Shown piece after piece: positions 45,898 to 62,273 of a stretch of DNA of 64,000 bases (within the stretch, counting starts at the first letter, position 1; each line of letters begins with the position of its first letter). Source of the stretch: a virus; the IMG/VR virus record IMGVR_UViG_3300010883_000011, positions 21,773 to 85,772 of that record. One strand, given 5' to 3'. Under the pieces are notes generated by a model. It was not told the origin of the DNA, ran no database searches, and worked only from the letters and a program-made list of their open reading frames with translations. The translations under genes were made by a program, and so were the position numbers.

Positions 45898-46560
45898 GTG
45901 GCTTCAAAGTTCCTGGTCACCGGGACCGGGAGGTCCGGTACATCGCTGGTGATGCAGTTACTGACCGCTTGCGGTGCGGATACGGGGTACGCGGGTCCGT
46001 TCAAGACTTGGTACATGCCGAACATGGGAGGCATGGATCGGGATCTGCATACAAAGATGACGCCCGAAGAAGTCGCAGAGCTTCCGTCTGTCGTCAAAGA
46101 CCCACGCGCTTGTAGACGTTTACCGCACCTATTGGCGAACGGGATCTATAAACCAGACCACGTCATTGTCTGCGTCAGAGACATCCGTGAAGCCACCTTG
46201 TCCTTCATGAGCGCCAACAACATCTGGTACCCGGATGACCCGGATGACCCGGACAGCTTTCGTATGGGGAGCGTGGAGGGTGTGGGGCTGCAAAATCCTT
46301 ATACGCACATATCCGACTGGCTGCGTCAGGTTCTTGGGTCTTTGTTGGAAACGCTTGTGGTACATGACATCCCGTTCACAACCGTTGCCTTCCCTCGTTT
46401 CGTTTCCGAACCCGACTACCTGGAGAGGAGACTGTATGAGAGCGGTGTCTTCGATGCCGATGATGGCCTGTCCTACTTCTGCCCTGTCCAGACATTCCGT
46501 AAGACCTTCTCCGTCTACGCGAACACCGACAACGTAAATCTGTGGACAGATGAAAAATGA
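45898..46560 (+). CDS. Sulfotransferase-family (P-loop) protein
   Basis: LVTGTGRSGTSL (5'-PSB-like loop), VKDPR, VRD......S (3'-PB-like). Confidence 0.7.
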   Translation: MASKFLVTGTGRSGTSLVMQLLTACGADTGYAGPFKTWYMPNMGGMDRDLHTKMTPEEVAELPSVVKDPRACRRLPHLLANGIYKPDHVIVCVRDIREATLSFMSANNIWYPDDPDDPDSFRMGSVEGVGLQNPYTHISDWLRQVLGSLLETLVVHDIPFTTVAFPRFVSEPDYLERRLYESGVFDADDGLSYFCPVQTFRKTFSVYANTDNVNLWTDEK

Positions 46561-48110
46561 GTAAGCGTTGGATGCTAAGACACGGCGACTGTGTAGCGGT
46601 GATGAAGCGACTGCCAGCAAATACAGTTGACGCCATCGTCTGTGACCCCCCCTATGGCCTCGCCTTCATGGGAAAGGAATTTGATTCTCTCGGGGACAGC
46701 AAGGCACAGCAGGCTTGGCACCTACGCTGGGCACGGGAGGCATTCCGAGTATTGAAACCAGGAGGAATGCTTCTGGCCTACGGTGGCACGCGCACCTACC
46801 ACCGCCTTGCCTGCGCCATTGAGGACGCTGGCTTTGAGATCCGGGACAGCATCTCCGTGCATGGATGGTCGTTTAGCCATCTGGACTGGACCTATGGTGA
46901 GGGGTTTCCCAAATCATTATCTGTTAGCAAGTCCATTGATAAACGTCTTGGGAAGAAGCGTCGTGTTGTCGGGAGCAAGCGTCTCGCTGGCAATGCGGCC
47001 ATGCCCATCTCCGATAAGGGCGGCACCTATGGGGTTGGAGTAGGCACGGCTCCAGCCAAGGACGTTCCAATCACGGTAGCCGGCTCCAAGGAAGCTGCTG
47101 CCTGGGAGGGGTGGGGCTCGCAGTTGAAACCAAGTCATGAGCCGATTTGTATGGCTCGCAAGCCGCTTGAGGGAAGCGTGGTTGACACCGTACTCAAGCA
47201 CGGCACCGGCGCGATCAACATCGATGCCTGCCGGGTACCGCACACTGGCGATGTGGACATGGACGCCGTCCAACGCCAGCAGACAGATGCCGCCATCGAC
47301 TTTGGTGGAGCAAGCGCGGGGGATGTTCTCCCTATGTATAAGCCTGGGGGTAGGTGGCCTGCGAACACGCTCATGATTCATCATCCGAATTGTACCGTGG
47401 TCGGGCTACAGCATTTCAGAACAGGCGCACCACAAGAAACCTTCGGCCCTGGCAACGCCAACGAGGTCTTTGGAGAGTTTGCAGAGGGGTTCAATCAGGC
47501 GTCACGGTACGGCGACGACAATGGCCTTGAGGCGTCCCCTGTGTGGGACTGCGTGGATGGATGCCCAATTCGGTCCATGGACGAGCAGACTGGCGTTTTG
47601 AACGGTCGTGGCAACACTAAGCCGAGCAGTGGCGGCGGCGGGATGTATGGTCACGGCAAGATCGATGTTGATTGGGGCGCGAGTGAATCGGGTGGAGCTT
47701 CCAGGTTCTTCAATCAGTTTCAGTATGAACCCGGTGAGGTTCCGTTTCTTTACCATTCGAAAGCCAGCAGAAAGGAGAGGGAGGATGGCTGCAAGGGCGT
47801 GAATCCATTGTCCGGGTCCGGGGTTGGTGGTTCAGAAGCCAGTGGCAAGGTTCACAACAACCATCCAACCGTGAAGCCGATTGGCCTGATGAAGTGGTGC
47901 GTGGACCTTTGCGTAGGGGGGAGGAGGGGAGCGTTCATCGTTGATCCGTTTGCCGGGAGCGGGACAACCGGAATCGCAGCCCTACGATCCGGGGTCCGGG
48001 TTCTCCTGATAGAAAAGGATGCCCATTATTGCGACATCATCCGACGCCGAATGGAACACGAAGAAGATCAGCAGCTACAAAAGAAAAAGAAAAGAGGACT
48101 TGACTCGTAA
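46557..48110 (+). CDS. DNA methyltransferase, beta class (N4-C/N6-A)
   Basis: DPPY near the N-terminus, HPTVKP, DPFAGSGTT near the C-terminus. Confidence 0.92.
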   Translation: MSKRWMLRHGDCVAVMKRLPANTVDAIVCDPPYGLAFMGKEFDSLGDSKAQQAWHLRWAREAFRVLKPGGMLLAYGGTRTYHRLACAIEDAGFEIRDSISVHGWSFSHLDWTYGEGFPKSLSVSKSIDKRLGKKRRVVGSKRLAGNAAMPISDKGGTYGVGVGTAPAKDVPITVAGSKEAAAWEGWGSQLKPSHEPICMARKPLEGSVVDTVLKHGTGAINIDACRVPHTGDVDMDAVQRQQTDAAIDFGGASAGDVLPMYKPGGRWPANTLMIHHPNCTVVGLQHFRTGAPQETFGPGNANEVFGEFAEGFNQASRYGDDNGLEASPVWDCVDGCPIRSMDEQTGVLNGRGNTKPSSGGGGMYGHGKIDVDWGASESGGASRFFNQFQYEPGEVPFLYHSKASRKEREDGCKGVNPLSGSGVGGSEASGKVHNNHPTVKPIGLMKWCVDLCVGGRRGAFIVDPFAGSGTTGIAALRSGVRVLLIEKDAHYCDIIRRRMEHEEDQQLQKKKKRGLDS

Positions 48111-48128
48111 CCCTCCATAGGTTACTAT
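48067..48128 (+). promoter_or_regulatory. Cassette promoter P1
   Basis: ATCAGCAGCTAC, A-tract, TTGACT-17-TACTAT with TAAC-N9-GTTA at 48108-48124. Confidence 0.8.
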
Positions 48129-48169
48129 GTATATAGAAAACAGACCTCCACACCAACAGGGGAAATGCA

Positions 48170-48586
48170 ATGTCGCAAACAAGGAAACGATTGACACCGC
48201 GAGAGATTGTGGCGATTTCGAAGGCGCTGGATACCAAGCAAGTTTCAGCAGCCAGGGGTAAGCTCGACGAGAACCGCACTTACCAAGGCTCGGTTACTGT
48301 CACCGTCGACTACTCGCTTGCCGTGGGGGAGGGGTATACCCAGGAGAGGTTGGCGAAGGGTGTTGACCCGTGGGCCATCATCCACGTTCTACAAGAGAAG
48401 CTGAAAGAGGTTCAGCCGAACCACAGCACCCGCCGAACCATCAACAACGCACAACGGGTAGCTGCTAAAGCCCCGAAAGATGTCAAGCAGACTCGGAACG
48501 ACTTTCAGTCTGCCATGACCAGGGAAAACCTGACCGTCAACGTCAGCGCCCCGGCAAGCTGTAGCGCGGAGTTGACCAAGGTATGA
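48170..48586 (+). CDS. Hypothetical early-type protein
   Basis: Follows P1 with CCAACAGGGG leader. Confidence 0.65.
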   Translation: MSQTRKRLTPREIVAISKALDTKQVSAARGKLDENRTYQGSVTVTVDYSLAVGEGYTQERLAKGVDPWAIIHVLQEKLKEVQPNHSTRRTINNAQRVAAKAPKDVKQTRNDFQSAMTRENLTVNVSAPASCSAELTKV

Positions 48587-48801
48587 AACCCGAACACGCT
48601 CATCAGATTGTCCAGTGGCTATCAGAGAATAGAATCCACGCGTATGTCTACCATGACTACAGTGGACGCGGCATGTATGGACGCACCACGGCTGGGGTGG
48701 TGACCCACAACGTCACCGACGTTTTCGAAGCGAAGGGAGCGTTGAAGATTCACGACGACTTCGCACGCGACAGCATGGGGCTTGACGCCATTGTCTACTG
48801 A
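48583..48801 (+). CDS. Small phage protein with YSGRGMYG motif
   Basis: YSGRGMYG...D.MG...IVY; ATGA coupling. Confidence 0.65.
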   Translation: MKPEHAHQIVQWLSENRIHAYVYHDYSGRGMYGRTTAGVVTHNVTDVFEAKGALKIHDDFARDSMGLDAIVY

Positions 48802-48823
48802 ACAAAACACCGGCGGGTTGTCT

Positions 48824-49018
48824 ATGAAGCACAACCGCGTCTTCGTGAAGCTCGCGCTCAATCGGTGGGCCTTGCCGAACGGCATCAGCGAAGCCGCCGT
48901 CAAGGAATACATGGACGAGTTTGAGCACCAGGACGGCTATGAATGCTGGATAGGGTACTTCGACGATATGAACGGTATCATCGAAGACTTCAAGCTCTAC
49001 ATTGAGCATTCCGACTAA
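48824..49018 (+). CDS. Small acidic hypothetical protein
   Basis: Operonic ORF. Confidence 0.5.
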   Translation: MKHNRVFVKLALNRWALPNGISEAAVKEYMDEFEHQDGYECWIGYFDDMNGIIEDFKLYIEHSD

Positions 49019-49116
49019 GGGGGGAGAGGGGGGTGCAAGATATGGTGCGCCTGCCTACTCGACATGGCACCTGATTCCGCTATTATCAAGGTGACGTGTC
49101 TGCGCGGGAGAGCATT

Positions 49117-49422
49117 ATGTCGTTCGAATTTACGGCTGCCCACCTCGGCAAACTTGCCTCTTGGGGTCTTCCTATGGTCTTTGTCGCGGGTGGTCTTTAC
49201 ATCACTCTTGAGGCACTCGCCCATGACGTTGACAAGATCTCGGCACGCCAGGAAACGCATTTAGATCTGGAGGGGCACCCGGTATCACAGGTGCGAATCG
49301 AAGACTTGTCGACTCAACAGACAGACCTGATGCTTGAACAACGAGGAATGCGGGAAGATCTCGCAGAGCAGGCGGTGAACATTGCTGCCATTTGTCAAGC
49401 AACGGGAGCAAGCTGCCGTTGA
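49117..49422 (+). CDS. N-terminal TM plus coiled-coil protein
   Basis: WGLPMVFVAGGLYI then heptads. Confidence 0.55.
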   Translation: MSFEFTAAHLGKLASWGLPMVFVAGGLYITLEALAHDVDKISARQETHLDLEGHPVSQVRIEDLSTQQTDLMLEQRGMREDLAEQAVNIAAICQATGASCR

Positions 49423-49442
49423 GCAGGGAGGGGGGGGGATCT

Positions 49443-49796
49443 ATGGGCGATGGGTACATAGATCAACTGTTAGACTTGGGTGCGCTCGGGCTCTTTGCTA
49501 CGTTTCTGATTTGGCAGTTTATCAAGATGCAAGACCGTCTTGATAAGTTAGTCCAAGACTTCCAAGAGCAGATCCGTGAGATCGACTCGACGTATGAACG
49601 CCGCGTAGAGACTATGCGTGAGCGATACGACATTGTCATTCAGAAGTACGACGGTGAGAGGCGGCTGCTGTCTGAACGTCTTGGGCATTCGGTAGAAGAT
49701 AGCCATGATAAATTGGATCGAGCGTTAGCTAAACTGGACGAAGGCTTACGCGAGATGCGTGCCCACTATAGACGGGGGGAGGGGGTAGACAAATGA
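49443..49796 (+). CDS. N-terminal TM plus coiled-coil protein (BhlA/holin-like topology)
   Basis: LGALGLFATFLIWQF then charged helix. Confidence 0.55.
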   Translation: MGDGYIDQLLDLGALGLFATFLIWQFIKMQDRLDKLVQDFQEQIREIDSTYERRVETMRERYDIVIQKYDGERRLLSERLGHSVEDSHDKLDRALAKLDEGLREMRAHYRRGEGVDK

Positions 49797-50041
49797 AAAC
49801 GGATCCGAAGACTATATTGATCGGTGCGTTTCTGTTGGCTGCAACCGGGGCGGGGGGGTCCATGATCGGACTCACAGTGGAGCCACAGGAAACCACTGAA
49901 ATGCGTGTTAGCAACGCTATGCTTGAAACACGGAACGAGTCTCTACAAGAACAGGTTGACAGGTTGGAGGCTCGCGTAGATGTCCTGGACGGAATCGTGA
50001 AGGAATGCCAGTCAATCATCATGGCGAACCAGTCGCCGTAG
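49793..50041 (+). CDS. Membrane-anchored coiled-coil protein
   Basis: Hydrophobic N-terminus, heptad repeat. Confidence 0.55.
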   Translation: MKTDPKTILIGAFLLAATGAGGSMIGLTVEPQETTEMRVSNAMLETRNESLQEQVDRLEARVDVLDGIVKECQSIIMANQSP

Positions 50042-50049
50042 GAGAAACA

Positions 50050-50319
50050 ATGAAACGATTTACGGTTGCGTGTTTGCTTATTTGCGCGTTTGCGTATGGC
50101 CACATCGGGGGGGAGGGGGTAGCGGAGGCACAAGAGCCGTCCCTCCGAGAGCAGCTACAGGCGTGCCAGGATGAACTGCGTACCGCGAGGTCTGCGATTG
50201 AACGCATCGAGAACCCGGACGTGTTGATTCAAGCGGAGCGTATTCAGAACCTGGAACAGATGATTCAGGACGCTTATGCGACGCCGCCCGAGACACCCCC
50301 ACCCTCTTCTGACGATTAG
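50050..50319 (+). CDS. Secreted or anchored coiled-coil protein
   Basis: GGAG SD, MKRFTVACLLICAFAYG signal. Confidence 0.55.
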   Translation: MKRFTVACLLICAFAYGHIGGEGVAEAQEPSLREQLQACQDELRTARSAIERIENPDVLIQAERIQNLEQMIQDAYATPPETPPPSSDD

Positions 50320-50438
50320 AAACAGCGGCTACAAAAGGCATACCCAGGGGGGAGGGGTATGCAGATGGTCGTCCACCTCGCCGTCCGCTATAACGGTGGT
50401 GAGGGCTCCTCAATCGTTGTGCCCCCGGAGGGCTACCC

Positions 50439-50918
50439 GTGTCCGATACCCCCACCCCCCTTCCGCACTCTGGAAACGCATCCCAAAAAAACGAAGGGGG
50501 GGGGAGGGGGGGGCACGCCCTGGACGCCACCCTCACGTCCTCCCGTGTGTGTGGTTCGTGTACGGCATGTTGCACGGTGCTGAAAGTCGACGAGATTGCC
50601 AAGGAAGAATACCAGCCGTGCGTTCACCTCAAGGCCGATTGTACCGGTTGCTCGATCTATGGTACGCGGTACGAGATATGCCGTGTGTATAAGTGCGCTT
50701 GGTTGCTCGGTGCCTGGGAAGAATCCGACCGACCGGACAAGCGAGGCGTTCTCACGCAAGAGCAGGTCGTGAACGGTGAGTGGACTGGTGCCATCGAATT
50801 CGTAGAAGTTGTCCACGGCAAGCTGGCGTCACCAGCGGTTCGAGCCATGATCGATGCGGTGAGCGGGAGCGGCTACAAGGCTATTCTAAAGGCTCGACGC
50901 TTCGTCAGCCGGGACTGA
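50439..50918 (+). CDS. YkgJ/CxxCxxCC cysteine-cluster protein
   Basis: CGSCTACC...C.HL....C.IY..R...CR.Y.C.W; start uncertain. Confidence 0.75.
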   Translation: MSDTPTPLPHSGNASQKNEGGGRGGHALDATLTSSRVCGSCTACCTVLKVDEIAKEEYQPCVHLKADCTGCSIYGTRYEICRVYKCAWLLGAWEESDRPDKRGVLTQEQVVNGEWTGAIEFVEVVHGKLASPAVRAMIDAVSGSGYKAILKARRFVSRD

Positions 50919-51705
50919 CACCGGATTCCAGGCCGCAGGGGCTTGTGGCGGCACCCAGGGGGTTTGCATCGGGTGTTCTTGGGAATCATGCCACGCCTTT
51001 CGCCGGGGGAATCCAAATCTCGTTCGTCCCGGAAACGCTTGTGCCGGGGTGCCTCGGGGCGGTTTCCGAATCTCGTTCGTGCGCGATCCGAATCTCGTTC
51101 GGAAAACGCTCGATTGAATTTCCTTGCGATGAAGACCACTTTTGATTCCCAGGGAAATGCGCCAGAAGTGAGAGCGAGCGAGCGTCGCGCATTCTTTGAG
51201 CGGTTGCGTCGTCTTCTTGAGCCAGCGCGTTTTCTTCGTTTGCGAAGCGCACTCTGGCCGAAACGCTCGATTGAATTTTGCTGGGTTCACTACCGGTTTT
51301 GCCCCGGGGGGGAAATGCGTTTCACTACCGGGTTTTTTCCTCTCGAATCGTTCGAGCGCAGCGGTCGCCGTGTCAAGAGCGCGTATCAGAAAGTTGCACA
51401 TCGCTCGCACCTCTCGACGCTTTCGAAGGGGCGTCTCGCCGTGTCAAGGGCGCACAAAACGCTCGAAAGCGGATGAGGGTGGATGGCGACCCGTCAAGAC
51501 CCGCGAGCGACTCCCATTTTCCGAGCGCATTGGCAAGGACTTTTCTGCGCCGCGCTTGCTTTTTTACAATCCGTCCACCTCGCCGAATCAGCAGCTACGA
51601 GCCGCGAGGCGACTCCCATTTCCGACGCGCATTGGCAAGGACTATTCTGCGCGAATCGAATCTTTTACATCTGGTAAAAAACCCAAGGCATCCCTCCCTA
51701 CGGGT

Positions 51706-51735
51706 ATTATAACACGCTCAGTGTTAGAAAGGCAA
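51706..51735 (-). promoter_or_regulatory. Leftward promoter R1 with TAAC-N9-GTTA
   Basis: Minus strand TTGCCT-18-TATAAT. Confidence 0.65.
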
Positions 51736-51894
51736 GCGGCGCTCAAAAAGAAAAGCGATTTATTTTGCCGTCCACCTCGCAGAATCAGCAGCTACGAGAG
51801 CCGCGGCGACTCCCATTTTCCATGCGCGTTGGCAAGGATTTTTCTGCGCGATTCGATCTTTTTACATCTGGCCGAAATCGCAAAGCGTCACCAG

Positions 51895-51924
51895 ACGATA
51901 ACATGCCTCCGGTTAGAAAGTCAA
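51895..51924 (-). promoter_or_regulatory. Leftward promoter R2 with TAAC-N9-GTTA
   Basis: Minus strand TTGACT-18-TATCGT. Confidence 0.55.
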
Positions 51925-52091
51925 TCGCTGATTGAAAATAAAAGCGATTTCTTTTCCCGTCCACCTCGCAGAATCCGGTTAGCAGCTCCCTTCGGGTCGA
52001 CGCGAATCAGCAGCTCCGAAATCGCGCCAAGCGACCAGAATCGCAGGACAAAGGGGGACGCAGAAAAAAGATCTTTTCTTTTCGAAAAGGG

Positions 52092-52119
52092 TAGACACTA
52101 ACCCTGTCTGTGTTATTAT
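52092..52119 (+). promoter_or_regulatory. Cassette promoter P2
   Basis: TAGACA-16-TATTAT with TAAC(52099)-N9-GTTA. Confidence 0.75.
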
Positions 52120-52125
52120 GTATAC

Positions 52126-52509
52126 ATGGAAGCAAGGAACACCAACCGAATCGAAGCCGCAAACACCGCAACCGCAGTGCTTTGCTACCGCCCCGAAAAC
52201 AAGAACTTTGACGCGGACAACATTATCTCCGTGGCAATCGAAGTCAGTTCTGATTGGAGCCTCTCCGAAATCCTCGCCACTGCAATCGCAAACGTCGCAG
52301 TCCCGAAGGGCTCGGCTCGCAGCGGTGTCTTCCAGGTTCAGACCGTCGAAGGCATTTTCGCACATGTCAACGAGCGAAAGATTGACCTCTCGTCCGACCG
52401 CAAGGCAGCGAAGGTTCTGTTTGCATCTTGGGCCGCCATGGCCGCTTTCGAAAACGCCAACCCCCTCTCCGAAGTCGACGCTTTCGATGCAGTCGCAAAG
52501 GCTCTCTAA
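52126..52509 (+). CDS. Hypothetical early protein, possibly leaderless
   Basis: ATG 7 nt after the -10 hexamer, no SD. Confidence 0.6.
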   Translation: MEARNTNRIEAANTATAVLCYRPENKNFDADNIISVAIEVSSDWSLSEILATAIANVAVPKGSARSGVFQVQTVEGIFAHVNERKIDLSSDRKAAKVLFASWAAMAAFENANPLSEVDAFDAVAKAL

Positions 52510-52510
52510 A

Positions 52511-52690
52511 ATGGCCGACCGAATCCATCCCGCAGTCATCGAGCAAGCCCGACGCGACCGCGAGGCCGACCGCTTCGAACGCAGTCAAATCCCGCTGCAC
52601 CGCCCGCCGCCACCGCCGCCCGCTTTTGACCCGAAGCCGCAGTCCGAAAATCGGCAGCGCGGATCGGTCATCGTTGACCTTTCAATCTAA
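52511..52690 (+). CDS. 59-aa Pro-rich protein ending RGSVIVDLSI
   Basis: ATG immediately after the previous stop. Confidence 0.55.
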   Translation: MADRIHPAVIEQARRDREADRFERSQIPLHRPPPPPPAFDPKPQSENRQRGSVIVDLSI

Positions 52691-52710
52691 CCCCAACACC
52701 AAGGCATCCC

Positions 52711-52866
52711 ATGCACCCCAACACGCACAACCGCTCTTCCAGAATCGAAGATCTGCTGCTCGACGAAGTCAACTCCCCGCTCTACCTCGGCTTCTTCAGC
52801 GCACTCACAATCGCGTATCTCGGCGGCTGGGGCTCGGTGCTGTTGCAGGTCATCGCGCTCGCGTAA
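52711..52866 (+). CDS. 51-aa membrane peptide (not in ORF track)
   Basis: CCAACACCAAGG leader; ...LYLGFFSALTIAYLGGWGSVLLQVIALA. Confidence 0.55.
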   Translation: MHPNTHNRSSRIEDLLLDEVNSPLYLGFFSALTIAYLGGWGSVLLQVIALA

Positions 52867-52950
52867 GCGAAAATCCAAGATTTACTCCAAGCCCCTGGGC
52901 ATGGGCTTCAACCAAACTGCCCGCCCCACCAACACCAAAAGGTGACTCCC

Positions 52951-53157
52951 ATGGTTTTGATTCGAAATCAAGTAGAATTTGCGATGCACGCAAAAGTCCA
53001 CGTTGAAGCATTCAACGCGGGTCGCACCGACGCCACGCGCTTTGTCGAAGCCGTCGCTGGTGACTGCGCCGCGCTTGTCGCGTTTCAGAATTTGTCCGAG
53101 CCTGACAAGCTCGCGCTGAATACGCTTTTCGGCGGTCCGCCGATTCTGCTGAAGTAG
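52951..53157 (+). CDS. Small hypothetical protein
   Basis: CAACACCAAAAGGTG leader. Confidence 0.55.
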   Translation: MVLIRNQVEFAMHAKVHVEAFNAGRTDATRFVEAVAGDCAALVAFQNLSEPDKLALNTLFGGPPILLK

Positions 53158-53185
53158 AGTCGCGCATCGCTCGACCGCCACCGCA

Positions 53186-53215
53186 CCCCGCGCAAGCGGG
53201 GCTGCTCGCGTTTTT
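53186..53215 (+). terminator. Hairpin terminator-like element
   Basis: CCCCGC-GCAA-GCGGGG followed by a downstream T-run. Confidence 0.5.
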
Positions 53216-53318
53216 GCGGGTCGCGTTTGGCGGCGTCCACCTCGCAGCAGCCCGGCAAAATCCGTCCACCTCGCCACGCCATCCGAGCGGGACCATGGCG
53301 GGCGCAAGGCGTCACCAG

Positions 53319-53439
53319 ATGATAACACGCCCGCTGTTAGAAAGTCAATCCCCCAAAAAGATAAAAAGCGATTTCTTTTGCGACCGGCTTTGGAGCAAGG
53401 CGTCACCCTACGATAACACGCCCGCCGTTAGAAAGTCAA
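53319..53439 (-). promoter_or_regulatory. Tandem leftward promoters R3 and R4
   Basis: TTGACT-18-TATCAT and TTGACT-18-TATCGT on the minus strand, each with TAAC-N9-GTTA (53323, 53414). Confidence 0.6.
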
Positions 53440-53627
53440 TCCCGGATTGAAAAGAAAAGAGATTTCTTTTTCGCTTGACACGCGACGCGCCGCCCCGAAT
53501 CAGCAGCTACAAATCGGCCCGTCCACCTCGCCGCCCTAACATAGAACGCGTTAGCGGTCAAGGATTATTCTGCTCTTTAGCAGCTCCAGGGCTGAAAAAG
53601 AAAAATGCATTATTCGCAAAATAAGTG

Positions 53628-53655
53628 GAGACTCTAACCTTCGTTGGGTTATAAT
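53628..53655 (+). promoter_or_regulatory. Cassette promoter P3
   Basis: GAGACT-16-TATAAT with TAAC(53635)-N9-GTTA; upstream A-tracts. Confidence 0.8.
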
Positions 53656-53716
53656 GTATGTACTGAAGGGGGAGACAGAAACCCTCCAAAGTACCAACCC
53701 CAACAAGGACAATCAA

Positions 53717-54112
53717 ATGTATTCCGAAATGAACCGCAGCGACCTCCGCACCGCCCTCGCAGCCGCAGGCATCGAAGGCGTCAACCGCAACAGCAAGGCC
53801 GCCATGGCCGATGCACTGACCGCCCACGACGCTGCCACCGCGAAGCCGGCTCGCTCGCCTCGCATGACCCGCGCTGACATGGCGCAGGTGCTGAAGGGCT
53901 TTATCGGCCGCAAAAAGTCCGTTGTCGTGGAAATCGCCGAAGTCGCCGCTGCTGGCATCTGTCGCTCCGGTACCCTCTACCACGAATATTGGAGTTCCTC
54001 CGACAACACCGGATTCAAGGCCGCTGCGCTGATTGGCTGTACCGCGACCCGCGTTGTCAAGAATCCCGCCACTGGCGAAGCGGGGGTTTGCCTCGTTCTG
54101 ACCCGCTCGTAG
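53717..54112 (+). CDS. Hypothetical early protein (N-terminal SAP/Rho-N-like helices possible)
   Basis: CAACAAGGA SD; YSEM.RSDLR..L...GI.G..RNSKA.M...L. Confidence 0.6.
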   Translation: MYSEMNRSDLRTALAAAGIEGVNRNSKAAMADALTAHDAATAKPARSPRMTRADMAQVLKGFIGRKKSVVVEIAEVAAAGICRSGTLYHEYWSSSDNTGFKAAALIGCTATRVVKNPATGEAGVCLVLTRS

Positions 54113-54236
54113 CGAATCGGGTTCCGGGCGGTCCCGTCAAAACCGCCCCGCTTCCAAGTAGCATCGCATCGGGCGGTGCTACCCGGAAGCGGCCAAATCG
54201 GTCGCTTTACCCCAACACTCCAACAAGGCAAAAATC

Positions 54237-54305
54237 ATGTTCGCGCTTATCCTGGTCCCCTACGTTTCTTTGGCAATCTTTGCGGCATCGCTCGCCACCG
54301 CGTAA
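54237..54305 (+). CDS. 22-aa hydrophobic peptide (not in ORF track)
   Basis: CCAACAAGG leader; MFALILVPYVSLAIFAASLATA. Confidence 0.5.
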   Translation: MFALILVPYVSLAIFAASLATA

Positions 54306-54420
54306 GCGGCAATCCCAAATCCCGCGCCTCGGCTTCGTCCGGGGCGCGGCTCGTTTTGCCTTCGCACTTCGGGTCCGTCCACCTCGCACGCCGACCCGCG
54401 ACCCGTCCACCTCGCAGGCC

Positions 54421-54503
54421 GAATCAGCAGCTACAAATCGGCCCGGAAAAAGATTGCGCTTTCGCAAAATAAGTGGAGACTCTAACGCAGTCTGTGTTAC
54501 TAT
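54421..54503 (+). promoter_or_regulatory. Cassette promoter P4
   Basis: GAATCAGCAGCTAC...GAGACT-16-TACTAT with TAAC(54483)-N9-GTTA. Confidence 0.8.
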
Positions 54504-54528
54504 GTAGATACCAACAAGGGAGTTCAAC

Positions 54529-54777
54529 ATGGCAAACGCACTCAACATCGCACAGGTCTTTCAGGCCGCGTTCGGCGACGACAACACCGCACCCGGTTTC
54601 TTCTACCGCGTCGGCGACGCAGCGGGTCTGTCGAGCCGCCAAATGATGTCTTTCGGTCGCTGGTCCGTCGACACCGAATGCGGCGCGGCTTGCGAAATCG
54701 CAATCCACGAAGCCGTCGCCGATGGCCGCAACGCCTTCGACGCCATGACCGCAATCGCCACGCTGGTTCTCGGATAA
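54529..54777 (+). CDS. Small hypothetical early protein
   Basis: AAGGGAG SD after P4. Confidence 0.65.
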   Translation: MANALNIAQVFQAAFGDDNTAPGFFYRVGDAAGLSSRQMMSFGRWSVDTECGAACEIAIHEAVADGRNAFDAMTAIATLVLG

Positions 54778-54803
54778 TCTAAACCAACAACAAGGGGCAA
54801 ACC

Positions 54804-55004
54804 ATGTCAAACACGCACCATTTGATTCTGACCTATACCGATCCAGATACGGGCGTCGAAGTCCGGCTTGGCTTTGATGATGGCGACCCGCGCCGGGTCC
54901 ACTGCATTAACAGCGACCGCACCGAAGCCTTTTCAGCGTCGCTTGACGAGGCACTCGATTCGCTGCTGGCTCGATGGCCGGACCTGAAATACGCAATCGA
55001 TTGA
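54804..55004 (+). CDS. Small hypothetical early protein
   Basis: CAACAAGGGG leader. Confidence 0.6.
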   Translation: MSNTHHLILTYTDPDTGVEVRLGFDDGDPRRVHCINSDRTEAFSASLDEALDSLLARWPDLKYAID

Positions 55005-55168
55005 GTCGCACTTCAGGGCTGCTCGACCCGCTCGCGCTTCGGCTCGGGCGGCTTCGGGCGTTTTTGCCTCGCGCATCGAGCCCGTCCACCTCGCACGGCC
55101 CCGCCAAAATCCGTCCACCTCGCGTTTGCGATTGCGGCCGATCTGGTTTTTTCGCAAGGCGTCACCTT

Positions 55169-55291
55169 ATCATAACATGCCTCCGGTTAGATAGCTCCGC
55201 CTGAATCAAAAGAATCAGCAGCTACCTCGTGCGAAAAAGATCGCACTTTTCGCAAAATAAGTAGAGATTCTAACGCACACGGTGTTATAAT
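55169..55291. promoter_or_regulatory. Divergent pair R6 (leftward) and P5 (rightward)
   Basis: TAAC-N9-GTTA at 55173 and 55271; -10 TATGAT (minus) and TATAAT (plus); AATCAGCAGCTAC between them. Confidence 0.7.
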
Positions 55292-55317
55292 GTATGTATA
55301 CCAACAAGGAGAACCAG

Positions 55318-55506
55318 ATGACCAACCGCAACATCGAAATCCCGACCGACGTTCAGAACGACAACACCGTGCAGGATGCAGCGTGGCGACTGCGCCAAGC
55401 CATCGACTCCCACGGCGAAGGTCACCCGATTGTGGTCAAGCGCGAAGCCCAGCTACAAAGCTGGATTGACCATTCCAGGGCCGCTACAATCTTTCGAAAT
55501 AGTTAG
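55318..55506 (+). CDS. Small hypothetical early protein
   Basis: AAGGAG SD; stop codon lies inside the next promoter module. Confidence 0.6.
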   Translation: MTNRNIEIPTDVQNDNTVQDAAWRLRQAIDSHGEGHPIVVKREAQLQSWIDHSRAATIFRNS

Positions 55507-55533
55507 AGACTCTAACGCAGACTGTGTTACTAT
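55506..55533 (+). promoter_or_regulatory. Cassette promoter P6, near-identical to P4
   Basis: GAGACTCTAACGCAG(A/T)CTGTGTTACTATGTAGATACCAACAAGGGAG shared with P4, one mismatch. Confidence 0.8.
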
Positions 55534-55558
55534 GTAGATACCAACAAGGGAGAGCGCA

Positions 55559-55876
55559 ATGACCACTCACTTTCACTCTTACGAAGCCAACGAGCGGCAC
55601 GAAGCCGCCATGCTGATCTGTGCCCCGACGGGGCAAAACAACGCTGCCCGCGCATTGGTCGGTCGAGCCATCCGCAAGGCGCTCGGTGTCAAGCGTTGGA
55701 ACGAAGGCATCCACTTCGTCGACTACCTGCCTGCCGGGTACGGCTACCCCGACGCCGACGCGCGATTCATGGTCAACGTCACCGACGCCGAAATGACGCG
55801 ACTCATGACCACGCTGACCGCGATGGCCGAAGCCGAGGGCTGGGACCGCCCGCCATGCGACGCATATCACGACTGA
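55559..55876 (+). CDS. Hypothetical early protein
   Basis: AAGGGAG SD after P6. Confidence 0.65.
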   Translation: MTTHFHSYEANERHEAAMLICAPTGQNNAARALVGRAIRKALGVKRWNEGIHFVDYLPAGYGYPDADARFMVNVTDAEMTRLMTTLTAMAEAEGWDRPPCDAYHD

Positions 55877-55957
55877 TTCTGGTCGGTCCACCTCGCAGGG
55901 CGCGTTGGCAGCGCCTGCGAGGCGCAAAATAAAAATGCACTTTTCTCAAAATAAAGG

Positions 55958-55985
55958 GAGACTCTAACGCACATGCGGTTATAAT
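55958..55985 (+). promoter_or_regulatory. Cassette promoter P7
   Basis: GAGACT-16-TATAAT with TAAC(55965)-N9-GTTA. Confidence 0.8.
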
Positions 55986-56011
55986 GTATGTACCAACAAG
56001 GAGAACACAAC

Positions 56012-56257
56012 ATGGCAAACCGCAACCCCAACCGCCTCTTCCTCATCGTTCACCCCGAAGTCGACCCGCAGGCTCCAGGCAGCGAGGGTATGTCAGCAGC
56101 GTTCGAACGCAACAGCGACGGCGAAATCCTCCGCACCCGCAACATTGAAACCGCCCGCAAGTGGCGCGACCGCCGCAACGAAGGCGTGGACCTCGGCGAG
56201 CCCCTTTTCTTCATCCTCGCAATCACCGCCGATGGCAGTCAGCAGCGAGCCGCGTAA
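56012..56257 (+). CDS. Small hypothetical early protein
   Basis: AAGGAG SD after P7. Confidence 0.65.
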   Translation: MANRNPNRLFLIVHPEVDPQAPGSEGMSAAFERNSDGEILRTRNIETARKWRDRRNEGVDLGEPLFFILAITADGSQQRAA

Positions 56258-56328
56258 GCGACGCACCGGCCCCGTCCACCTCGGGCGGGGTCACCCCAAC
56301 ACCAACCCCAACAGCAAAAGGCAACACC

Positions 56329-56604
56329 ATGCGAATCACATCGACCGGACCCCGAATCGTCCGCACCCCGTTTCAGCGGGCCAATATGCCCTACCTTCTG
56401 GTCATCGATTCCGAAGGCTTTGTGCGATATCGCATTGACAAAGCCGCAAACGGCCTCGCCGCCAAAGCCCCGTTCCGAATCTACCGCACCGATGCTTCGG
56501 GTAGGTACCACGGGCGGGCACTCACTCTCGTTGGATACGCAAAGGGCATTGCCGATGCTCGGCGACAGGCAGAGGCACTTCCGCTGGATAGCCTCGGCCG
56601 ATAG
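56329..56604 (+). CDS. Small basic hypothetical protein
   Basis: CAA-rich leader with AAGG. Confidence 0.6.
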   Translation: MRITSTGPRIVRTPFQRANMPYLLVIDSEGFVRYRIDKAANGLAAKAPFRIYRTDASGRYHGRALTLVGYAKGIADARRQAEALPLDSLGR

Positions 56605-56748
56605 CGACGCACCCAAGCTGCTGACCCCGCTCGATTCAATCGGGCGGGGCTTCGGTGGTTTTGTCCACCTCGCGGACCCGGCGCAGAATCCGTCCACCTC
56701 GCAGAACCGCGTGCGAGCCGCTGCTCGTTTTTCGAGAACCGTCACCCT

Positions 56749-56906
56749 ATCATAACATGCCCCGTGTTAGAAATCTCCACCGAAAGCACGAAAAGTTTTG
56801 GCGTCCACCTCGCCCCAGATGGCGCGTTTCAGCAGCTACAGGCCGCAAAAGAAAAATGCACTTTTCGCCAAATAAGTAGAGACTATAACCGACCCTGGGT
56901 TATAAT
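56749..56906. promoter_or_regulatory. Divergent pair R7 (leftward) and P8 (rightward)
   Basis: TAAC-N9-GTTA at 56753 and 56886; CAGCAGCTAC between them; TATAAT at 56901. Confidence 0.7.
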
Positions 56907-56936
56907 ACATGTATACCAACCAACAAGGGAGTTCAC

Positions 56937-57377
56937 ATGGCAAAGGCAAACGAAAACAACCGGGGCAATAACAGGAACGGAAGCAACTGGATCCGCAAGG
57001 ACCTGCGCTTGGCCATCTACCTGCGGGACAACATGACCTGCGTGTTCTGTAAGACCCACGCCGACAACACGACGCTGACGCTTGACCACGTCGTGTCCCG
57101 CTCCGAGGGCGGGTCCAATGGGACCCCGAATCTGGTGACCGCGTGTCGCTCGTGCAACAGCAGCCGCCAAGACATGCCCATTGCCGACTTCGCAGCCCGC
57201 TTCGACGGCGCAGCCCAACGGGTCGCCACCGCAATCAGCACGACGCGGATCGAAATGGTTGACTACCGCAACACCGCGAAGGGCATGTACGCCGACCCCG
57301 CAGAGAAGGCCAAGATCGACGCGATGCGAGCACGGGCTTCCTGTTCCTGGAAGTCCGAGCACGCGTGGCGCAAGTAG
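56937..57377 (+). CDS. HNH endonuclease
   Basis: R.AIY.RD...CVFC, LDHV..RS.GGSN...NLVTAC..CN. Confidence 0.92.
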   Translation: MAKANENNRGNNRNGSNWIRKDLRLAIYLRDNMTCVFCKTHADNTTLTLDHVVSRSEGGSNGTPNLVTACRSCNSSRQDMPIADFAARFDGAAQRVATAISTTRIEMVDYRNTAKGMYADPAEKAKIDAMRARASCSWKSEHAWRK

Positions 57378-57450
57378 CAGCGGCCTCGCGGCTCGGTCCA
57401 CCTCGCGGGCCGAGCCGCAAAATCAATCTACACTTTTCGCCAAATAAGTA

Positions 57451-57478
57451 GAGACTATAACCTGCCCTGGGTTATAAT
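57451..57478 (+). promoter_or_regulatory. Cassette promoter P9, near-identical to P8
   Basis: CACTTTTCGCCAAATAAGTAGAGACTATAACC..CCCTGGGTTATAATACAT shared with P8. Confidence 0.8.
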
Positions 57479-57512
57479 ACATACAACACCAACCCCCAAC
57501 AAGGCGAACAAC

Positions 57513-57620
57513 ATGACCCCCTTCATCGCAATGACTTGGTACCTCGCAACTTGGACCATTGGCGCACTCAGCGGCGTCGCAATCTACGGTGCAGCCACCT
57601 CTCGCAGCGCACGTCGCTAA
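57513..57620 (+). CDS. 35-aa single-TM peptide (not in ORF track)
   Basis: CAACAAGG leader; MTPFIAMTWYLATWTIGALSGVAIYGAATSRSARR. Confidence 0.55.
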   Translation: MTPFIAMTWYLATWTIGALSGVAIYGAATSRSARR

Positions 57621-57631
57621 AGGCAATCCCC

Positions 57632-58060
57632 ATGGCAAAACGAATCCCCATCCCTTGCTCGTCGTGCGACCGCCAATGTCTCGGTCGACGCACGACCCGT
57701 GGCACCCCGCGAATCCTTCGCCTGTCCGAAGTCAGCCGTTCGGCCATCTCGTCCGAGCCTGTCTGCCTCAACTGCTCGTGGCAACACCAAGCCGCGATCC
57801 TCCGCTGCGATACCGTCGCCGACTTGGAAGCCCTCAAGGCCGACCCGTCCATAGCTGCTCGTTTTCTGATCGACTCCCTTCAGGGGGACGCCGACAGGCT
57901 TCGCCAAATCGAAGGCCGGCTTGCTGCCGAGGTCTATGCGAGCAGGCACGAGCACGCCAGGGCAGTGGCACAGGCGAGCGACGAGCCACTGCTGCCACAA
58001 ATCCCCGTGCCATGCGAGCATTGCCTCTATGTCGAATGCGCCTGCAACGTCGCCGATTGA
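57632..58060 (+). CDS. Cys-rich hypothetical protein
   Basis: CSSC, CLNC, CEHC...CAC. Confidence 0.6.
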   Translation: MAKRIPIPCSSCDRQCLGRRTTRGTPRILRLSEVSRSAISSEPVCLNCSWQHQAAILRCDTVADLEALKADPSIAARFLIDSLQGDADRLRQIEGRLAAEVYASRHEHARAVAQASDEPLLPQIPVPCEHCLYVECACNVAD

Positions 58061-58066
58061 CTCGCG

Positions 58067-58716
58067 TGCTCAATAGTTGAACACGGCCCCGCGACTCTCT
58101 ATCAGGGTAGCGGGGCCGCTCTTCGTTTGACCCACGCATCGGTCCACCTCGCCCACGCAGATTGACCACGCACCACGGACCAAACAATTTCGGGCGTTTA
58201 GCGGAGACATGGGGGCTGAATAGTGGTAGGGGGACAGTCCCGAGGTCCGATGGACCGCCCCAGAAAACAGCGAACCCGCGCACGAGCAAGGGCGTCGCTG
58301 CTGGTAGTGAGTGGGTCTGCGCGTGTTCAATAGTTGAACAGGCCGCGCATGGGGCATGGGGCACGCGAAAACTTTTGGCGCACTTCGTTTGTGCCTCGCG
58401 CTTGGCCCGTTGCGTCGCTGTCCACCTCGCCATGGCTTGGGCGTCGACTGTCCACCTCGCTGCGAAGGTTCGAAGCGTCCACCTCGTTTGGTCCACCTCG
58501 CAGATTTCTGGCGTCGAGCGACGCTCAATACGCGGTCGAGCCGGGGCGCATGGGGCGTCGCACTTCGTTGCGCTGCTGCATGGGCGGTGCGTCGCATTGA
58601 ATGGGCATGGGGGCGCGGGCAGTCCCCAAAAGGAAACGCGGTGCATGGGGTGCGAGCGTGTTGCTCGATTTGTAGCTGCTGATTGATTGTCGTCGAGCCT
58701 GCTCAATAGTTGAACA
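58067..58716. repeat. Palindrome TG(C/T)TCAA-TAG-TTGAACA, three copies
   Basis: 58067-58083, 58324-58340 (perfect) and 58700-58716. Confidence 0.85.
58084..58128 (+). terminator. Hairpin closing the cassette array
   Basis: CGGCCCCGC...GCGGGGCCG stem followed by CTCTTCGTTT. Confidence 0.55.
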
Positions 58717-59278
58717 CGCACCAGCATGGCCCATGGGTCTTGGCGTCGCGCTTCGCTGTGCCCTGGGCTGGCTGGGCCGCTGTCCACCTCGCAGCCTTGT
58801 CCACCTCGCCGCTTCGCTCGCCGCTGCGCGACGCACACCGCTCGCTCGTGCGCTCTTGACACGTCGCCTTTCACGCCACAAAGTCCAGTCAAGATTTTCG
58901 GACAGTGCGTCGTTCATTTATGCCCAACGCTCTTCAGCGCAAAAGTGTATCGCTTTCTTGCACACGCAATTTTGCCGTGCTTCGTGCGACGCACCGACGC
59001 AATTTGTCACAACGCTTTGCAACCGCGCTCCTTTTGACCCAACTTTGTGCGCCGCTTTCTAAGTGCCTGCTATCACTCACCTTTTTCGGCGCTCTCTTCG
59101 CAAGTGCGTCGCACCCCCACCGCACCAAGTTTTCGCGCTCTTCGTTTATTACCTGTAGGAGTCCTCTCGCGCAGTGCCTCACCAAAATACCGACTTGGAT
59201 TTTTTGTAAAAAACGCGGGGGTGCGCGAGTATCTGCGTGGGGTGTGAGTGGGTTATGATGCTGGAGGAGGAAAACCCT

Positions 59279-59644
59279 ATGCCAGACCGAGAAGTTCAGG
59301 AAGAAGTCGACGATAGGCTGAACATGCGCGTAAACAACAACCCCTTGCAGGCAGCGGGTCGTGATGAGTTGATGCGTGAGGCTGAATTCGGTGGTCCTGC
59401 GTCGAGCCGGGACTCCAGGTTCTACTTCGACCGCAAGGAGTTGGAGCAGTTGCTTGAGATTTGCAAGTCTTCGGTGTCTGGTCGGGTGATTATCCACCAT
59501 GCCGGTGTGAAGGTGCGTCTCTACCGTTCCGGCTCGGGCCACATGTACGAGGCGTGGCACCTGATTGGTTCGAAGGCGGTGCCGGAGGCGAAAGAGAACC
59601 CCACGATAAGCCTTCCTGACCTACTCAACGTCAAGGTGCCGTAG
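59279..59644 (+). CDS. Hypothetical protein upstream of the terminase
   Basis: GGAGGAGG SD; operonic with terL. Confidence 0.6.
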   Translation: MPDREVQEEVDDRLNMRVNNNPLQAAGRDELMREAEFGGPASSRDSRFYFDRKELEQLLEICKSSVSGRVIIHHAGVKVRLYRSGSGHMYEAWHLIGSKAVPEAKENPTISLPDLLNVKVP

Positions 59645-61355: not shown

Positions 61356-62273
61356 ATGAAAGAGAAGCTTGGCGTACTGACCTGTTTCCACTTCTACAAG
61401 AACACCACACTCAAAGAGGTGTTGCACGACACCATGCCCGGTCTGCCCATCTTGATTGATAGCGGTGGCTTTTCAGCGTTTTCGCAGGGCGCTGTGATCG
61501 ATCTCGATGAGTATGGGCGGTGGTCCCGTCGTAACCGCACTCCAGACACAAACTGTATCAGCCTTGATGTAATAGGCAGCGCGGGAAAATCATCGATCAA
61601 CATTTCGCGCCTGAAACCCTATGGTGACTACATGCCATGCGTTCACGTTGGCTCATCGCCCGATTGGATTGATCGTTACCATGATCGGGGCTTTCGCTAC
61701 ATGTGCCTGGGCGGGATGGTTCCTTTCCTCAAGGGTGGTCAGACCAAATCGAAAGAGGCGACAGGCCGGTTGATGAAATTCATCCATGCGTGCCACGACC
61801 GGGCAGACGCGTTGGGTGTCGACCTGCACGGCCTGGGTTGCACTACCTGGGACATCGTGCGGAAGTTTCCCTGGAGGTCGGTGGATTCATCCTTCCAGAA
61901 CATGGGTGTGCGTTTTGGTTACCCGGTTCGCGTCTATGACCACGCTACGCGGAAGTGGCACTACATTGGACTCCGTGACCCGAAGTCTGTCCTGCCCGCT
62001 ATGGGCCTCATTCGTGAGTACGGGTACAACCCATTCCCCTTGCTGCACGACTCGCCACACACCAACGAGACGGTGCTTGGGTTGTCCGTGGCATCGGTCG
62101 AGCGGTGGCAGAAAGATCAACGACGAGCCCCCTTCGTATATTTTGCCGATGGAAACAAAGACCATGTTCGCGCCATCGCTCGGATGATCTACACCGAGAA
62201 ACCAGCGACTATGGACTGGCGCTATGACGACTGGTACGGGAACAACGACCAACAGCCCACTGGTGCGGTGTAG
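61356..62273 (+). CDS. TGT-fold DpdA-like protein 2
   Basis: DSGGFS, SLDVIG, MPCVH, CLGGMVP, HGLG, SVDSS; clear paralog of 41760-42698. Confidence 0.75.
   Translation: MKEKLGVLTCFHFYKNTTLKEVLHDTMPGLPILIDSGGFSAFSQGAVIDLDEYGRWSRRNRTPDTNCISLDVIGSAGKSSINISRLKPYGDYMPCVHVGSSPDWIDRYHDRGFRYMCLGGMVPFLKGGQTKSKEATGRLMKFIHACHDRADALGVDLHGLGCTTWDIVRKFPWRSVDSSFQNMGVRFGYPVRVYDHATRKWHYIGLRDPKSVLPAMGLIREYGYNPFPLLHDSPHTNETVLGLSVASVERWQKDQRRAPFVYFADGNKDHVRAIARMIYTEKPATMDWRYDDWYGNNDQQPTGAV

Follow-up and report, generated by a model that had tools for sequence, protein, structure and literature searches.

A repeated palindrome in the host-type promoters of an orphan-gene cassette array of an uncultured marine phage

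Introduction

What organises a run of about 25 small orphan genes standing under repeated host-type promoters, and does anything besides the host polymerase read those promoters? The array that raises this question occupies 48.1-58.1 kb of a 64,000-nucleotide stretch of DNA (the window; bases 21773-85772 of the 85,772-bp IMG/VR record IMGVR_UViG_3300010883_000011, with 21.8 kb lying outside) from an uncultured tailed marine phage of ~86 kb. Its promoters carry the palindrome TAAC-N9-GTTA, hereafter the dyad. A sequence-only reading of the window had taken the array for a shufflable host-takeover or anti-defence island under a single dimeric regulator; the observation behind that proposal is confirmed here and its interpretation is partly supported.

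Results and discussion

An invariant dyad in the host-type promoters

The window has 16 copies of the dyad where 0.29 would be expected, a count that none of 100 shuffled sequences reached; this bears out the enrichment over shuffled sequence that the sequence-only reading had predicted. All 16 copies are confined to 48108-57474, and over the whole genome (85,772 bp) there are 20 copies against 0.79 expected. In an unbiased count of all 4-5-mer inverted repeats with gaps of 2-13, the dyad was by far the top enrichment. It is 17 bp long, and six sites are extended to TAACC-N7-GGTTA (0.06 expected).

Nine of the dyads belong to rightward sigma70-like promoters (P1-P9) whose modules can be aligned over 56-84 nt; the nine TAAC positions given earlier, from 48108 to 57458, were all exact, and the assignment to rightward sigma70-like promoters was borne out by sequence. 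The sequence-only reading had also spoken of optional leftward promoters. These do exist but had been undercounted, as the seven other dyads (51710, 51899, 53323, 53414, 53537, 55173 and 56753) read as leftward promoters of the type TTGACTttcTAAC-N9-GTTATCAT, one of which (53537) has a poor -10. Outside the window, at genome 10518 and 9120, two additional leftward promoters of the rightward type, with a ACCAACAAGG leader, precede the MoxR and VWA genes.

Aligning 17 promoters of three sequence classes on the dyad revealed one fixed register, as had been described: GTTA occupies -14 to -11, so that the -10 hexamer begins with its TA. All 17 share TAAC, GTTA, the closing T of the -10 hexamer and an A placed seven bases beyond it. 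The N9 positions carry no more than 0.6 bit except for the last, which is T or G; T gives a TGn extended -10 and is present at -15 in 10/17 promoters. The other flanks of the three promoter classes cannot be aligned, yet the dyad is kept in all of them. Sigma70 contacts no specific bases at -27 to -24, the positions of TAAC, so the invariance of TAAC calls for a second reader while N9 varies. By these sequence comparisons the dyad behaves as a selected site, held constant in three promoter classes as N9 drifts.

Each promoter is built from an A/T-tract UP-like region, a weak -35, a TAnnAT -10 (often with TGn) and a +1 at the invariant A. This A, seven nucleotides after the -10, coincides with the predicted transcript start and supports the promoter reading without proving it. 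The A/T tracts lie at -65 to -40, and within them an AAAAG-N6-CTTTT inverted repeat is found upstream of both promoter classes (5 copies against 0.04 expected). The -35 is poor in P3-P9 (AGAGAC or GGAGAC, 3/6), whereas P1, the leftward class and the promoters at genome 9120 and 10518 have a good TTGAC -35. Among intergenic sigma70 consensus matches in the whole genome, 12/16 carry the dyad, and 47-60 kb holds 15 promoter-like consensus matches against 4.5 expected. At P2 the predicted +1 A also opens the ATG at 52126, which predicts a leaderless mRNA.

Two other functions for these letters were ruled out. TAAC is not the -35 of an extracytoplasmic function (ECF) sigma factor, as no partner 16-17 nt downstream is conserved between promoter classes; nor is the dyad a site of site-specific recombination, as no integrase or resolvase was detected. 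A literature search on the two half-sites found nothing relevant to a TAAC/GTTA operator.

Cassettes, spacers and a polar motif

Downstream of the promoter each cassette has a short CAA-rich leader with a strong Shine-Dalgarno (SD) sequence, followed by one to four orphan genes as had been reported, a range that P1 exceeds in preceding about eight (Table 1). GC-rich hairpins of 9-12 bp follow cassettes 2, 3, 4, 6, 7, 8 and 9, five of them with a partial T-run, and termination is predicted there.

Table 1. Features of the array and its surroundings (window positions unless marked genome; GTCC, GTCCACCTCG)
Feature	Position	Strand	Details
Portal	genome 12873-15425		
Tape measure	11364-16094		
Helicase	30922		
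Primase-DnaB	36197		
Endolysin	44446		
N6/N4 methylase	46557-48110		
P1	48100..48135	+	TTGACT-17-TACTAT; dyad TAACC-N7-GGTTA 48108-48124; predicted +1 A 48135; overlaps methylase gene end
Cassette 1	48170-50918		~8 genes under P1
Gene-poor repeat region	50919..52090		ATCCGAATCTCGTTCG x3; AAACGCTCGATTGAATTT x2; ~44-nt unit x3; GTCCACCTCG x3; (A)ATCAGCAGCT(A/C)C x3
Leftward promoters	within 50919..52090	-	dyads 51710, 51899; predicted +1 51699, 51888
P2	52091..52126	+	dyad 52099-52115
Cassette 2	52126-52509, 52511-52690, 52711-52866, 52951-53157		4 genes
Spacer 3	53158..53716		fullest; hairpin 53183-53205; GTCC 53235, 53264; leftward promoters 53323 (predicted +1 53312), 53414; AATCAGCAGCTAC 53498; GTCC 53521; leftward dyad 53537; A/T tract; P3
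P3		+	dyad 53635; predicted +1 53662
Cassette 3	53717-54112, 54237-54305		second: 22-aa membrane peptide
Spacer 4	54307..54528		terminator 54322-54349 + T-run; GTCC 54377, 54405 (28 bp apart); AATCAGCAGCTAC 54422; A/T tract; P4
P4		+	dyad 54483; predicted +1 54510
Cassette 4	54529-54777, 54804-55004		
Spacer 5	55005..55317		terminator 55042-55059 + T-run; GTCC 55084, 55113; leftward promoter 55173 (predicted +1 55162); AATCAGCAGCTAC 55213; AAAAG-N6-CTTTT 55235; P5
P5		+	dyad 55271; predicted +1 55298
Cassette 5	55318-55506		
P6	55505..55540	+	dyad 55513; predicted +1 55540; abuts preceding stop; no terminator or other spacer part
Cassette 6	55559-55876		
Spacer 7	55877..56011		hairpin 55891-55922, 5' arm overlapping GTCC 55886, without T-run; A/T tract; P7
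P7		+	dyad 55965; predicted +1 55992
Cassette 7	56012-56257, 56329-56604		internal hairpin with GTCC 56274
Spacer 8	56605..56936		terminator 56625-56649; GTCC 56663, 56692; leftward promoter 56753 (predicted +1 56742); GTCC 56803; TTTCAGCAGCTAC 56827; A/T tract; P8
P8		+	dyad 56886; predicted +1 56913
Cassette 8	56937-57377		HNH endonuclease
Spacer 9	57378..57512		hairpin 57388-57418, GTCC 57396 in loop, without T-run; A/T tract; P9
P9		+	dyad 57458; predicted +1 57485
Cassette 9	57513-57620, 57632-58060		35-aa membrane peptide; Cys-rich protein, 142 aa; terminator 58084-58118
Region without confident gene	58061..59254		1.2 kb, upstream of TerS; seven GTCCACCTCG
TerS	59255-59644		
TerL, lambda gpA-type	59646-61352		

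The spacers follow the order hairpin, GTCC (GTCCACCTCG) pair, leftward promoter, CAGCAGCTAC, A/T tract, rightward promoter and CAA-rich leader. The sequence-only reading had seen this order throughout; it is kept in full in four spacers (53158-53716, 54307-54528, 55005-55317 and 56605-56936) but only in part elsewhere, with P6 having no spacer and those before P7 and P9 a single GTCC within the hairpin and no CAGCAGCTAC.

Among these parts GTCCACCTCG is strictly polar: its 25 copies, against 0.22 expected, all stand on the + strand (25:0) among rightward genes, and the genome has just one copy on the minus strand, located upstream of the leftward arm. The motif, a self-contained 11-13-mer of the form (CC)GTCCACCTCGC, has 23/26 copies in intergenic positions and is clustered within 14 kb. 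In the array it is placed after or inside terminators: pairs 28-30 bp apart follow the terminators of cassettes 2, 3, 4 and 7, and single copies stand at or within the hairpins that follow cassettes 6, 8 and 9, and inside cassette 7. A further seven copies fall in the 1.2-kb gene-free stretch before TerS. The motif was absent from inside all promoters examined, and the idea that it is half of a bipartite sigma-dependent promoter was ruled out because nothing at a set distance from it is conserved as a partner. Also ruled out, by eye, was sigma54 recognition of the TTGGCAAGG...CTGC unit, whose GG-GC spacing is 13 and not 10.

The element AATCAGCAGCTAC has 6 exact copies, and 13 against 1.0 expected at up to 2 mismatches. 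The TCAGCAGCTAC word occurs 16 times genome-wide against 0.66 expected, nine of these in array spacers; as other copies lie inside genes on either strand (for instance genome 808, 6168 and 11815, and window 25844 and 48068), its role is not confined to the spacers and belongs to the level of the DNA.

Downstream of the leftward promoters there is no gene and no intrinsic terminator. Judged from their positions, leftward transcripts would run through the GTCC pair, as CGAGGUGGAC, and on into the preceding cassette at its 3' end. Collision insulation and antisense RNA suggest themselves as readings. Pairing of the 5' ACGCCUUGCG of the leftward RNA with the first CGAGGUGG can occur in three copies, and G-U pairs favour the minus strand; this possible 5' helix was set aside, three sequences being too few and the third copy breaking two pairs.

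Orphan cargo

The cargo genes had been described as mutually unrelated, and an all-against-all blastp comparison found no pair in the array at E<1e-3. A role in host takeover or anti-defence was not borne out: among ten cargo proteins scanned against Pfam and PHROG, nine had no family and the tenth was an HNH endonuclease. One cargo protein had no homologue among 5.8 billion clusters, and two gave no match in the ESM Atlas. The array genes at 52-58 kb have GC contents of 0.60-0.64, third-position GC (GC3) of 0.70-0.84 and negative coding-strand GC skew, while the rest of the genome has a GC of ~0.55, lower GC3 and positive coding-strand skew.

A few proteins and words within the cargo deserve mention. 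In window 49117-50319 four consecutive small proteins each have an N-terminal membrane helix and a coiled-coil tail, and possibly act in lysis or membrane remodelling; the protein at 49793-50041 has a 67%-identical stretch in G002, a complete 76-kb relative. The motif GGGGGAGGGG has 6 exact copies in the window, of which 5 fall in cassette 1 (between 48325 and 50509), and 19 copies against 6.2 expected at up to one mismatch; copies at 49020, 49775 and 50348 precede genes as SD-like sequences, and those at 48325, 50109 and 50500 are intragenic. The basic orphan protein at 53717-54112 had no family match, and its N-terminus (SDLRTALAAAGIEGV...MADAL) looks, by eye, like a HeH/SAP-type DNA-binding motif; the array proteins encoded at 48170-48586 and 56329-56604 are basic too.

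An accessory region and its variation

In relatives recognised by TerL (50-64% identity), TerS, TerL and portal form one block. One of them, L013, has a methylase homologue followed by TerS-TerL within ~640 bp, and because this gap is so short, the 11 kb between methylase and TerS in the present phage are accessory. G002 has structural, replication and lysis genes in common with it, along with the MoxR-VWA-sigma-HTH (helix-turn-helix) block and two cassette 1 genes, and none of the genes at 52-58 kb. Array cargo was not found in another relative, G001. Relatives whose TerL is ~62% identical are without the array, its palindrome and its cargo. The dyad is not enriched in G002 or G001, and no enriched promoter palindrome was seen in L013-L023, L030, G001 or the full G002 sequence. 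A TTAA-N3-TTAA signal in G002 (L154) was rejected as a promoter palindrome, as it comes from a single tandem array at 75.5 kb, made of ~28 heptamers TTAATC(G/A/C) at 75523-75720. The sequence-only reading had looked to relatives for cargo that varies between persisting spacers; the region does prove accessory and absent in kin, but these lack the spacers and palindrome too, so no cargo swap is seen.

A DNA pattern scan for the promoter gave 0 matches in IMG/VR, and in JGI metagenomes it matched only L028, a strain contig 99.5% identical to the reference. Scans for the GTCC pair matched 4 viral stretches and >120 bacterial contigs, and the viral stretches encoded none of the phage's proteins (tblastn, E<1e-5). 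The claim that the cassettes are shufflable therefore holds as a potential only, with no same-toolkit relative carrying different cargo. Exact stretches of 19-32 nt are common to different spacers, and metagenome X4 lacks exactly one 28-bp GTCC unit at 54375. In metagenome X5, three single low-depth contigs leave the reference at 54324 (the terminator start), 55391 (inside a gene) and 58805 (in a GTCC).

Comparison with known systems

Promoter-early stem-loop cassettes (PeSLs) have been described in the T4-type phages RB49/phi1, PST and nt-1 (PMC2839356, PMC4122927). They join a repeated strong sigma70-like promoter to an AT-rich upstream region and an adjacent stem-loop, among orphan open reading frames (ORFans) in a hyperplastic region (PMC2839356). 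The analogy with these cassettes, already proposed from the sequence, fits every sequence-level feature (PMC2839356). Here too, repeated sigma70-like promoters have AT-rich upstream regions and predicted stem-loop terminators; the modules are intergenic in a hyperplastic region of small ORFans that relatives lack; and the cassettes are transcriptionally self-contained, with repeats long enough for homologous exchange. Unlike the known carriers, however, the present phage is a siphophage unrelated to T4-like myoviruses, and its array has an invariant dyad in every promoter spacer, to which the intercassette spacers add the strictly polar 11-13-mer, the TCAGCAGCTAC word and opposing promoters. 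Exchange and mini-circles at modules belong to the PeSLs; here the repeats give only the potential for them. By its sequence features the array is an analogue of PeSLs and not a member of the T4 set, the term analogue being used because the phage is not T4-like and module exchange is only a potential. It is a more elaborate form of the T4-type promoter-terminator cassettes, and it shows clearly, in a phage from outside the T4 group, how orphan genes can be packed in standard promoter-terminator units.

The stoperators of cluster A mycobacteriophages (L5 gp71 and the TipsytheTRex repressor; PMC9283540) resemble GTCCACCTCG(C) only, as short asymmetric sites in >20 copies that are intergenic and co-oriented with transcription. 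The differences are that neither such a repressor nor a lysogeny gene was detected in the present phage, which looks virulent, that the L5 site doubles as an operator while GTCCACCTCG is not inside promoters, and that GTCCACCTCG is confined to 14 kb and not genome-wide.

The dyad itself has the features expected of an operator, with dyad symmetry, fixed half-site spacing and promoter-core overlap in 17/17 promoters. It resembles the operators of lambda CI/Cro, P2 C, C-controller proteins and Aca1, which likewise present a 17-bp dyad with conserved outer half-sites, a free centre and overlap with the promoter core, and the phage encodes a protein modelled with an XRE fold as a candidate partner. 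It differs from these lambdoid and XRE operators in having ~19 copies, in every host-type promoter and with no lysogeny genes, instead of 3-6 at a switch region, and in having half-sites of only 4-5 bp. The conserved inverted repeats (CIRs) of Streptomyces phage phiC31 offer another likeness, being 17-bp inverted repeats in many intergenic early-region copies read by one phage repressor; phiC31 differs in being temperate and in having early promoters of a phage-specific type.

A common switch for the host-type promoters

We propose that 48.1-58.1 kb is a hyperplastic early-gene region of self-contained PeSL-like cassettes, in which an operator would be built into every host-type promoter (9 rightward, 6-7 leftward and 2 in the left arm). 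A dimeric DNA-binding protein on the dyad, which is centred at ~-19 and covers the spacer and the first two -10 bases, would occlude RNA polymerase. A dimer is favoured because the symmetry is exact and six sites add one extra pair; a block to polymerase is expected because the dyad covers the start of the -10. One such factor would shut, or hold closed, the whole host-polymerase regulon together, and the phage's own sigma factor (Sigma70_r2, E 5.6e-7, encoded in the left arm) would take over later transcription. The 19-32-nt patches of identity could let cassettes be gained, lost or duplicated as in PeSLs. What is observed are the motifs with their statistics and register, the insertion relative to kin and the orphan cargo; that expression is early, that occlusion represses, which protein regulates and that modules recombine are all points of inference, and we hold the whole picture, in which one repressor-type factor gates all host-type promoters and a phage sigma serves later genes, to be somewhat better than an even bet. 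If the dyad is an operator, one protein would control the host-polymerase regulon of a virulent marine phage, a simple early-to-late switch in a lineage of which no member has been cultured.

A weak candidate for the dyad binder, judging from its modelled structure, is a 108-aa protein encoded directly downstream of the sigma gene (L026:3073-3399, minus strand), the only HTH protein found in the phage. It has sub-threshold HTH_3/YdaS matches, and its AlphaFold model (predicted local distance difference test, pLDDT, 75) resembles the XRE-type dimeric regulators C.Kpn2I, HipB, P2 C and Aca1.

Several points weigh against this switch. The XRE-fold protein is kept in kin that lack the dyad (44-92% identity), although the start of its recognition helix reads RPQH here versus REQA in those kin, a difference of two residues; the single dimeric regulator posited by the sequence-only reading accordingly stays a proposal. 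Promoter activity, +1 positions and early timing are all predictions from sequence. Within GTTA, G-14 (extended -10), T-12 and A-11 are explicable by promoter function alone, which leaves TAAC and T-13 as the bases that strictly call for a further factor. From centre to centre the half-sites are 13 bp apart, more than one helical turn. The HNH gene under P8 sits as packaging-associated HNH genes do, and not all cargo need be early. Finally, as no related phage with the same toolkit and different cargo was found in the IMG/VR and JGI pattern scans, cassette exchange stays conjectural.

A broader reading with three layers would combine insulation with the switch: a dimeric factor shuts ~19 promoters, the polar (CC)GTCCACCTCGC serves as an orientation-dependent roadblock or as a Chi-like shield of the cos end, and the opposing promoters insulate by collision or give antisense RNA. 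Such a portable chassis would give a virulent phage a safe way to take up orphan genes and express them. The Chi-like role is conceivable, given that the motif is uniformly oriented towards the putative cos DNA end, and the three layers taken together seem to us fairly unlikely. Of all parts of the array, the polar GTCCACCTCG and the opposing promoters without genes are the hardest to explain, and they could reveal a new insulation of neighbouring transcription units.

The dyad might instead be two unrelated boxes. TAAC, at about -30/-25, would be a promoter-specificity box for a phage co-activator of host RNA polymerase, comparable to the MotA box of T4 middle promoters, GTTA would be the extended -10 plus -10, and the factor would activate middle promoters. 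The poor -35 of P3-P9 would fit such a factor, as would the coincidence of G-14, T-12 and A-11, with T at -15 in 10/17, with standard promoter positions; TAAC also ends 11 bp before the -10, which is the spacing between the MotA box and the -10. TAAC is, however, equally invariant where the -35 is good and an activator needless, and it exactly reverse-complements -14 to -11, a match unlikely to arise by chance and extended by a fifth base pair in six sites. No MotA- or AsiA-like protein was found in the phage, most of whose proteins are without a family. We consider co-activation unlikely.

Another possibility is that a host regulator, perhaps a repressor of the stress or SOS type, uses the dyad as its operator, which would couple the host-type promoters to the state of the cell. 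That no convincing phage-encoded binder was found fits this idea, as does the absence of the dyad in kin with different hosts (judged by their 45% GC). On the other hand, we know of no box of the LexA, Fur, CRP or FNR type that TAAC-N9-GTTA would match, and the literature search on its half-sites offered no support. We consider a host regulator quite unlikely. Least tenable, and largely refuted, is the notion that the common parts merely descend from one duplicated ancestral spacer with a functionless palindrome: although P6 and P4 are 93% identical over 56 nt, P9 and P8 have 32 exact nt in common and the leftward promoters 53323 and 53414 are a 91-bp tandem duplication, N9 varies freely while its eight flanking bases are constant in 17 copies, the dyad is kept in three promoter classes with unalignable flanks, and the 11 differences between L028 and the reference all lie outside the motifs.

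The phage and the surroundings of the array

The record is complete by CheckV and circularly permuted, the TerL-portal synteny running across its ends. With a lambda-type gpA terminase, a tape-measure protein and a siphophage gene order, the phage is a siphophage, taken to be of cos type; no integrase or resolvase, neither a tyrosine nor a serine recombinase, is detectable in it, and it is therefore probably virulent. The 1.2-kb region upstream of TerS may be a cos or late-control region, judging from its position and content. It overlaps window 58069-58715, where the palindrome (T/C)TCAATAGTTGAAC occurs three times (0.01 expected) together with many CATGGGG words. In HK97-like phages an HNH gene, a gene-free region and TerS-TerL are arranged in this way around cos.

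No DNA match was found among GenBank phages, no tRNAs were found, and Rfam gave nothing at E <=1 in window 47-60 kb. At least 16 studies have seawater or marine metagenomes that contain near-identical DNA. MoxR, VWA proteins and the sigma factor are encoded in the leftward arm, which lies outside the window (genome 357-12569). The arm's block g11280-MoxR-VWA-...-sigma-HTH is collinear with the lysis genes in G002, and in the present phage is inverted and placed between TerL and portal. The phage also encodes Dam and 7-deazaguanine genes of the QueC/QueD type, and from QueC and QueD (PTPS) its DNA probably carries 7-deazaguanine. Two paralogous proteins are encoded at window 41760-42698 and 61356-62273 (30% identity, E 1e-35).

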